Shown here piece by piece: positions 20,426 to 20,833 of a DNA stretch of 24,113 nt (within the stretch, counting starts at the first letter, position 1; each line of letters begins with the position of its first letter). The translations under genes were made by a program, and so were the position numbers. The DNA is from Escherichia coli (lineage in GTDB: Bacteria; Pseudomonadota; Gammaproteobacteria; Enterobacterales; Enterobacteriaceae). A model generated the notes under the pieces. That model ran no database searches, had not been told where the DNA came from, and saw nothing but the letters and a program-made list of their open reading frames with translations. Location of the stretch: NCBI RefSeq assembly GCF_003334355.1, contig NZ_QOWP01000044.1; one strand, written 5' to 3'.

Positions 20426-20833
20426 ATGAAAATGATTGAAGTTGTTGCCGCCATCATTGAACGTGATGGCAAAATTTTACTCGCGCAACGCCCCGCCCAG
20501 AGCGATCAGGCGGGATTATGGGAGTTTGCCGGTGGTAAAGTCGAGCCGGATGAAAGTCAGCGGCAGGCGCTGGTGCGTGAGTTACGCGAAGAACTGGGCA
20601 TCGAAGCAACTGTGGGTGAATATGTTGCCAGCCATCAGCGAGAAGTTTCGGGGCGGATTATCCATCTTCATGCCTGGCACGTACCCGACTTCCACGGGAC
20701 GTTACAGGCACATGAACATCAGGCGCTGGTCTGGTGCTCACCTGAAGAGGCGCTGCAATATCCGCTGGCCCCTGCTGACATTCCATTATTAGAGGCGTTT
20801 ATGGCTTTACGCGCCGCCAGACCAGCGGATTAG
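20426..20833 (+). CDS. nudG: Nudix hydrolase, CTP / 5-hydroxy-CTP pyrophosphohydrolase
   Basis: 135-aa ORF with Nudix box GGKVEPDESQRQALVRELREELG. Confidence 0.9.
   Translation: MKMIEVVAAIIERDGKILLAQRPAQSDQAGLWEFAGGKVEPDESQRQALVRELREELGIEATVGEYVASHQREVSGRIIHLHAWHVPDFHGTLQAHEHQALVWCSPEEALQYPLAPADIPLLEAFMALRAARPAD

Follow-up and report, generated by a model that had tools for sequence, protein, structure and literature searches.

Genes and features of the nudG/ynjH junction

The window analyzed here is a 24,113-nt stretch of Escherichia coli DNA that carries genes in the order chbB-osmE-nadE-cho-ves-spy-ast-xthA-ydjX...ynjF-nudG-ynjH-gdhA-ynjI. In this window, nudG and ynjH form a convergent overlapping gene pair; the two genes lie on opposite strands and share 3' coding nucleotides. 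The original prediction had placed a 35-bp overlap of the two 3' ends at 20799-20833, and these limits were found to be exact to the base in the open reading frame list, the raw sequence and the RefSeq annotation. The following features define the junction.

20426..20833, plus strand: nudG coding sequence, 135 aa, with stop codon TAG at 20831-20833 (open reading frame list and raw sequence; RefSeq annotation)
20799..21071, minus strand: ynjH coding sequence, 90 aa, with a GTG start and a TAA stop read from 20801 down to 20799 (open reading frame list and raw sequence)
20799..20833, both strands: shared coding stretch of 35 nt, encoding NudG F125 (part) to D135 plus stop and YnjH T80 (part) to P90 plus stop
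20831..20833, plus strand: nudG stop TAG, antisense of ynjH codons Thr80 (ACT) and Asn81 (AAT)
20837..20839, plus strand: in-frame backup stop TAA of nudG, two codons beyond TAG, which is the stop position (mostly TGA) of species with a 41-nt overlap
21078..21083, minus strand: ynjH Shine-Dalgarno sequence AAGGAG, 6 nt upstream of the GTG start (read from the sequence)

Codon position 1 of nudG is found opposite position 1 of ynjH, position 2 opposite position 3 and position 3 opposite position 2; Lillo and Krakauer denote this register as phase 123:132 (PMC2174442). The arrangement had also been described as the same as that of cho and ves, and the comparison holds, as cho (2451..3338, plus strand) and ves (3298..3873, minus strand) have a convergent coding overlap of 41 nt (3298..3338). 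This second pair is likewise annotated in RefSeq and its minus-strand partner is likewise FliA-dependent, as reported for ves (PMC4183435), but the proteins encoded are different ones. Another two genes in the window, ynjE (ending at 19710, plus strand) and ynjF (ending at 19719, minus strand), converge with 8 nt between their stop codons.

Of 5,426 complete E. coli genomes, 5,424 contain a match to a 1-kb region with nudG and ynjH, and in 5,415 the match covers 80% or more of the region. Among 12 sampled E. coli matches, RefSeq annotates both nudG and ynjH beneath the match in 11; the remaining one (H12) has nudG and a "hypothetical protein", with ynjH split by an IS5-family element. The 35-nt overlap was identical in both fully read E. 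coli records with an intact ynjH. In E. coli F829 (NZ_OY754443.1; positions 3500-4972 of locus L002), an IS5-family element, ISKpn26-like, is inserted in ynjH, and the split gene is annotated as a "hypothetical protein" that still overlaps nudG plus a separate DUF1496 fragment.

Both genes and both C-termini are genuine

NudG is a (d)CTP/pyrimidine (deoxy)nucleoside triphosphate pyrophosphohydrolase. The protein matches the NCBIfam equivalog NF007834 over residues 1-135 with 267.9 bits (cut-off, 156) and is identical to PDB entry 2rrk across all 135 residues. The Pfam NUDIX match covers residues 4-125, and the alignment of NudG with MutT-like homologues of known structure stops at approximately residue 123-127. 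An AlphaFold2 model of NudG (mean pLDDT, 92) places the final helix at residues 118-130, with a mean pLDDT of 69 over the final block (residues 131-135). According to this model, the overlap is predicted to span one and a half turns at the end of the final helix and a floppy tail of five residues. Helix 118-130 thus reaches into the overlap, and only residues 131-135 look dispensable. In the orthologue alignment, NudG residues L128, R129 and R132 are nearly invariant.

YnjH is a small protein with a Pfam DUF1496 domain over residues 33-89 of 90 (E = 2.8e-24); its N-terminus is hydrophobic and, judged by eye, resembles a signal peptide. Aligned across 18 orthologues, drawn from about ten genera, the protein shows four invariant cysteines and an almost invariant C-terminus, STNPLVWRRV, in which the positions S79-T80-x-P82-L83-x-W85-R86-R87-V88 are conserved throughout. 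Residues 83-89 form the last beta-strand in an AlphaFold2 model, where pLDDT is about 80 (moderate confidence). Variation in ynjH is of the coding type, lowest at codon position 2 and highest at codon position 3. Moreover, the YnjH end NPLVWRRV plus two residues is kept in all four loci without an intact overlapping nudG (L055, L059, L065 and L068, described below). The comparison of ynjH C-termini among orthologues that had been proposed with the original prediction thus showed an end that is conserved across genera, also where nudG is absent. Neither gene has a true stop that lies earlier; domain matches, the 2rrk structure and orthologues all show that the C-termini within the overlap belong to the two proteins and are not run-on artefacts.

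Conservation of the overlap across Enterobacteriaceae

A scan with a YnjH profile, with one genome per species, yielded 80 Enterobacteriaceae loci from Escherichia, Salmonella, Citrobacter, Enterobacter, Lelliottia, Kluyvera, Buttiauxella, Atlantibacter, Trabulsiella, Siccibacter, Kosakonia, Phytobacter and other genera. nudG converges on and overlaps ynjH in 74 of the 80 loci. Across these 74 loci and the window (75 sequences), the overlap measures 41 nt in 57 and 35 nt in 16, with single cases of 26 nt and 44 nt; 41 nt is therefore the common state and the 35 nt of E. coli a minority state. Its distribution across genera makes the overlap as ancient as a large share of the Enterobacteriaceae.

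The six exceptions all concern nudG. In two of them, nudG is damaged next to an intact ynjH: Citrobacter koseri NCTC10786 (L011) has a frameshift caused by a 1-nt deletion near the nudG 3' end, and its frame stops 6 nt before ynjH, and Trabulsiella guamensis (L014) has an internal deletion that joins the nudG 3' end to the GGKVE region. In the other four, nudG is not found at this position. In two loci labelled Enterobacter (L065, 2770-2774, and L068, 2701-2705), ynjH converges on xthA with a 3-nt gap, and the whole ydjX...ynjF-nudG block, which is about 8.6 kb in E. coli, is missing between xthA and ynjH. In L055, xthA is found about 100 nt from ynjH. In L059, from Pluralibacter, nudG lies 1.9 kb from ynjH, and its product, the only NudG encoded by a gene that does not adjoin ynjH, stops near residue 130 and has a different C-terminal sequence, ...DAFITAKR. 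NudG may have been short ancestrally and then extended, or the short Pluralibacter form may be derived.

The nudG stop position is tied to ynjH codon choice

In species with the 41-nt overlap, the nudG stop is a TGA or TAA, read from the complement of ynjH codons 78-79 (xTC AGC or xTT AGC). In all 16 sequences with the 35-nt overlap, YnjH Thr80 is encoded by ACT and followed by Asn, AAT or AAC, and the antisense of these codons is a TAG two codons earlier. The only sequence in which ACT is followed by another codon, His CAT (L027), retains the 41-nt form. Read from the codons, then, a ynjH change that is synonymous introduces a stop into nudG, and the overlap provides a clean small example in which a change that is silent in one gene is a nonsense change in its partner. 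The 35-nt overlaps are scattered among Escherichia, Citrobacter, Enterobacter, Siccibacter, Kosakonia, Phytobacter and other genera. Because it is found in so many genera, this shorter form suggests that the early stop arose more than once, which in turn argues that the last two residues of NudG are dispensable.

The shared sequence evolves in the ynjH frame

Nucleotide diversity was calculated per alignment column for the 75 sequences and compared between the overlap and the adjacent codons that belong to one gene only, with the following results.

nudG position 3: 0.077 inside the overlap, 0.612 in adjacent codons (p = 2e-5)
nudG position 2: 0.307 inside, 0.108 adjacent (p = 0.006)
ynjH position 2: 0.077 inside, 0.061 adjacent (p = 0.6)
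ynjH position 3: 0.307 inside, 0.437 adjacent (p = 0.09)

By these measures, the shared stretch evolves like ynjH and unlike nudG coding sequence, which makes the NudG tail largely a passenger. Mean pairwise amino acid identity was 0.85 for YnjH residues 78-90 and 0.69 for NudG residues 125-135, compared to 0.82 for the preceding NudG residues. The lower diversity at ynjH position 3 inside the overlap, which is not significant, may leave room for weak selection on the NudG tail or helix end.

Overlap length and conservation relative to chance

Across the genes of the window, an antisense frame in phase 123:132 meets a stop in 4.2% of codons, and a frame that enters its neighbour in this phase would remain open for at least 10 codons approximately 65% of the time. 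The length of the nudG/ynjH overlap therefore needs no special explanation, and the possibility that it is unusually long was rejected on these numbers. Unlike its length, the conservation of the arrangement across genera exceeds chance.

Convergent overlaps of this kind have been described in 2007 by Lillo and Krakauer, whose model based on stop codon mutation agrees with this view of the overlap length; they counted 58 convergent overlaps in E. coli and assigned a rho-independent terminator to approximately 20% of the convergently overlapping genes (PMC2174442). The nudG/ynjH pair resembles the phase 123:132 convergent overlaps of that study in that the 3' ends of two oppositely oriented protein genes coincide and the overlap can be explained by a shift of a stop codon, after which the frame continues to the next antisense stop. 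Most of the E. coli pairs lack a rho-independent terminator, as do nudG and ynjH, and nothing essential differs between them. At 35-41 nt, however, the overlap is longer than the modal 4-nt overlap of the class, and it differs further in that it can be traced across many genera of Enterobacteriaceae, with a stop that toggles with a synonymous site of the partner gene.

Transcription of ynjH and the question of an excludon

A motif scan identified a promoter upstream of ynjH that agrees with the RegulonDB entry ynjHp.

21099..21133, minus strand (motif at 21133..21106): sigma-28 (FliA) promoter of ynjH, made up of TAAAGTTT, a 12-nt spacer and ACCGTTAT (motif scan and RegulonDB ynjHp)

The RegulonDB ynjHp sequence is given in supplementary file 5 of PMC4183435, and its start site corresponds to position 21099 of the window. 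ynjH has been reported to be a FliA target in E. coli, with a ChIP peak and RNA-seq values of 29 vs 2 in the FliA target table (PMC4183435), and its Salmonella orthologue, STM1300, is a FliA target as well (PMC4183435; bioRxiv 10.1101/2020.09.09.289983). Deletion of ynjH left motility unaffected (PMC4183435; bioRxiv 10.1101/2020.09.09.289983). With the promoter motif found in the window and expression taken from the literature, ynjH is a sigma-28 (FliA) class 3 gene.

Two sigma-28-like motifs at 21083-21133 face each other, and their -10 elements partly coincide. In the FliA table of PMC4183435, the 28-mer given for ynjH, TAACGTTATTGTCTCTGCTACTGATAAC, maps to the plus strand at 21083-21110 and points towards gdhA rather than ynjH; this reflects either a strand error of the motif finder or a second, divergent FliA-like site.

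Overlapping expression of the two genes has been documented before. A GWIPS-viz figure from 2018 used nudG-ynjH as an example of overlapping genes in strand-specific Ribo-seq and mRNA-seq data (PMC5753223). In the list of pairs provided with ExcludonFinder, nudG-ynjH, cho-ves and ynjE-ynjF are among 165 convergent overlapping-transcript pairs of E. coli MG1655, and an RNA-seq-based map from 2025 in the same source reports transcript overlap for nudG-ynjH in at least 50% of 58 E. coli transcriptomes (PMC12288877).

These reports raise the possibility that the pair is a selected convergent excludon, in which a sigma-28-driven ynjH transcript running antisense through nudG would lower nudG expression, by polymerase collision or RNase III, and nudG would act reciprocally on ynjH. 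We consider this explanation unlikely. The pair does appear in the E. coli convergent set, cho-ves and ynjE-ynjF beside it, but an excludon is defined by mutually exclusive expression with RNase III processing, and nudG-ynjH is listed in PMC12288877 for its overlapping transcripts; as a coding overlap forces the transcripts to overlap, here for at least 35 nt, that listing is not independent evidence of regulation. An arrangement kept in 74 of 80 species representatives is what a selected regulatory overlap would show, yet overlaps are hard to undo and their conservation would be expected without selection. The absence of a terminator between the two genes, the condition-specific FliA promoter of ynjH conserved in Salmonella, and the FliA-dependent partner (ves) in the other overlapping pair, cho/ves, all fit regulation by antisense transcription. 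Against it, constraint on YnjH coding alone explains the sequence pattern, several lineages have lost nudG at this locus with ynjH unchanged, and nudG is missing from the supplementary tables of the FliA study (PMC4183435).

Transcription termination at the junction

The original prediction had taken the overlap to imply one of two things, antisense read-through or a terminator lying within coding sequence. One of these two must hold on logical grounds, and the evidence favours read-through; no convincing terminator and no unusually stable fold was found at the junction, and the published transcripts overlap. A consensus scan of 20186-21500 found no intrinsic terminator, and the predicted folds of the two strands around the overlap have no stability beyond that of shuffled sequences (z-scores, 0.48 and 0.06). 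A relaxed ViennaRNA scan returned a single terminator-like candidate at the nudG end.

20805..20849, plus strand: weak interrupted hairpin (20805-20841, dG -7.6 kcal/mol) followed by GTTTTGTC

This candidate is unconvincing; it was missed by the standard scan, and the fold has a z-score of 0.48. The minimum-free-energy fold of the plus strand contains a further stem at 20822-20859 (CCAGCG...CGCTGG). Its conserved bases correspond to invariant YnjH codons (Q72-R73 and P82-L83), which are common codons, and no compensatory changes were found in the CCAGCG/CGCTGG stem among the orthologous loci compared. An Rfam search of the whole window returned nothing in the nudG/ynjH region.

An embedded terminator would require that the hairpin at 20805-20841 together with GUUUUGUC ends the nudG mRNA, and that the palindrome at 20822-20859 acts as a two-way pause or collision site. 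This is quite unlikely, and an embedded intrinsic terminator was rejected as the main explanation, as consensus and relaxed scans gave only weak candidates. The hairpin and U-run found by the relaxed scan do lie just past the nudG stop, but the standard scan is empty, the z-scores on the two strands are close to those of shuffles, and the U-run vanishes in species with Arg in place of Lys at YnjH position 76. The minimum-free-energy fold does contain the stem, but its conserved bases are explained by invariant YnjH codons, and in the only lineage where both sides are altered (L007, with AGG and CCA), the changes disrupt the pairing and do not compensate for each other. In favour of a terminator of some kind, a rho-independent one has been assigned to the minority of E. 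coli convergent overlaps noted above (PMC2174442), and bidirectional terminators between convergent E. coli genes are reportedly unlike canonical intrinsic ones (bioRxiv 10.1101/2022.10.23.513370). The bidirectional terminators found by SEnd-seq (Ju et al. 2019), in the account of them given in bioRxiv 10.1101/2022.10.23.513370, resemble the nudG/ynjH junction in that there is no canonical intrinsic terminator and head-on collisions could end both transcripts. As described there, however, those elements are intergenic and have a hairpin that fixes the collision, whereas nudG and ynjH have no intergenic space between them and no hairpin more stable than expected by chance.

An 11-nt inverted repeat was also noted, with arms ATCCGCTGGCC at 20760-20770 and GACCAGCGGAT at 20820-20830 that could form a long-range stem on the minus strand; one arm encodes NudG YPLA and the other encodes YnjH NPLV on the opposite strand. 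The repeat is not conserved beyond Escherichia and Citrobacter, and it was dropped because its upstream arm is not conserved in Enterobacter-type sequences and the fold is not unusually stable.

A composition profile revealed one further feature, downstream of ynjH.

20499..20618, minus strand: C-rich, G-poor stretch with a C/G ratio of 1.9-2.7, 180-300 nt downstream of the ynjH stop and antisense to nudG

On its base composition, this stretch is a possible Rho loading region for the untranslated 3' tail of the ynjH transcript. A search of supplementary files reporting mapped 3' ends (PMC7815308 and PMC6131387) found neither gene name.

Origin and significance of the overlap

Taken together, the data make it very probable that nudG/ynjH is a genuine, ancient, ynjH-dominated tail-to-tail overlap of two real genes, which is tolerated rather than purpose-built. 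The nudG frame extends beyond the NUDIX fold, passes antisense through the final 10-12 codons of ynjH and ends at the first antisense stop it meets. ynjH dictates the shared sequence, because its last beta-strand (NPLVWRRV) is strongly conserved, and the NudG tail is largely whatever the complement encodes. Where Thr80 is ACT and Asn81 is AAT or AAC, nudG ends at TAG and the overlap is 35 nt; otherwise, the frame continues for two more codons to a TGA or TAA in ynjH codons 78-79, giving 41 nt. Since a terminator would not fit into the junction and none was detected there, each mRNA would be expected to continue antisense into the other gene, with termination most likely Rho-dependent or collision-dependent further on. 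Sigma-28 drives ynjH transcription, which means that nudG should receive more antisense transcription while the flagellar programme is active.

The overlap itself was already known, from the standard annotation, the GWIPS-viz figure and the published excludon list, and it is an ordinary member of its class. The present analysis adds, modestly, evolutionary detail: the overlap is shared across Enterobacteriaceae, its sequence evolves under the constraints of the ynjH frame, and two alternative positions are used for the nudG stop, depending on a synonymous ynjH codon. In practical terms, a clean deletion of ynjH must spare its last 35 nt, as nudG will otherwise be altered.

In both overlapping pairs of the window, the sigma-28 gene is the minus-strand partner. 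It was also observed that read-through from ynjH across the antisense strand of nudG would reach ynjF in the sense direction. One could envision from this a sigma-28 antisense switch, in which FliA-driven ynjH and ves transcripts turn down nudG and cho, respectively, and ynjH read-through continues sense into ynjF. We regard such a switch as very improbable; if true, it would couple motility to mutation avoidance, through nucleotide-pool sanitation by nudG and nucleotide excision repair by cho. Finally, the notion that the overlap is an annotation artefact, with one open reading frame being no gene or ending earlier, has practically no probability and was rejected, to the extent that sequence evidence permits, on the equivalog, Pfam, 2rrk and orthologue evidence for both genes: short open reading frames like ynjH are in principle sometimes over-called, and no actual support for this was found, but each frame ends at its first stop codon, YnjH belongs to a conserved Pfam family, varies in a coding-type manner and has a mapped FliA promoter, and NudG has been structurally characterized at full length.

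Other observations in the window

A position-by-position comparison of the window with a stretch of equal length from E. coli MB50 (L084, NZ_CP073949.1) gave 1,732 mismatches, and chbB and ynjI showed no open frames at the transferred coordinates. Small indels must therefore be located near both ends of the window relative to MB50. Outside the overlapping pairs, Rfam matched the sRNA family ES036 (CssrF) at 2301-2343 on the plus strand, in the nadE-cho intergenic region, with 42.9 bits against a gathering score of 37.6.
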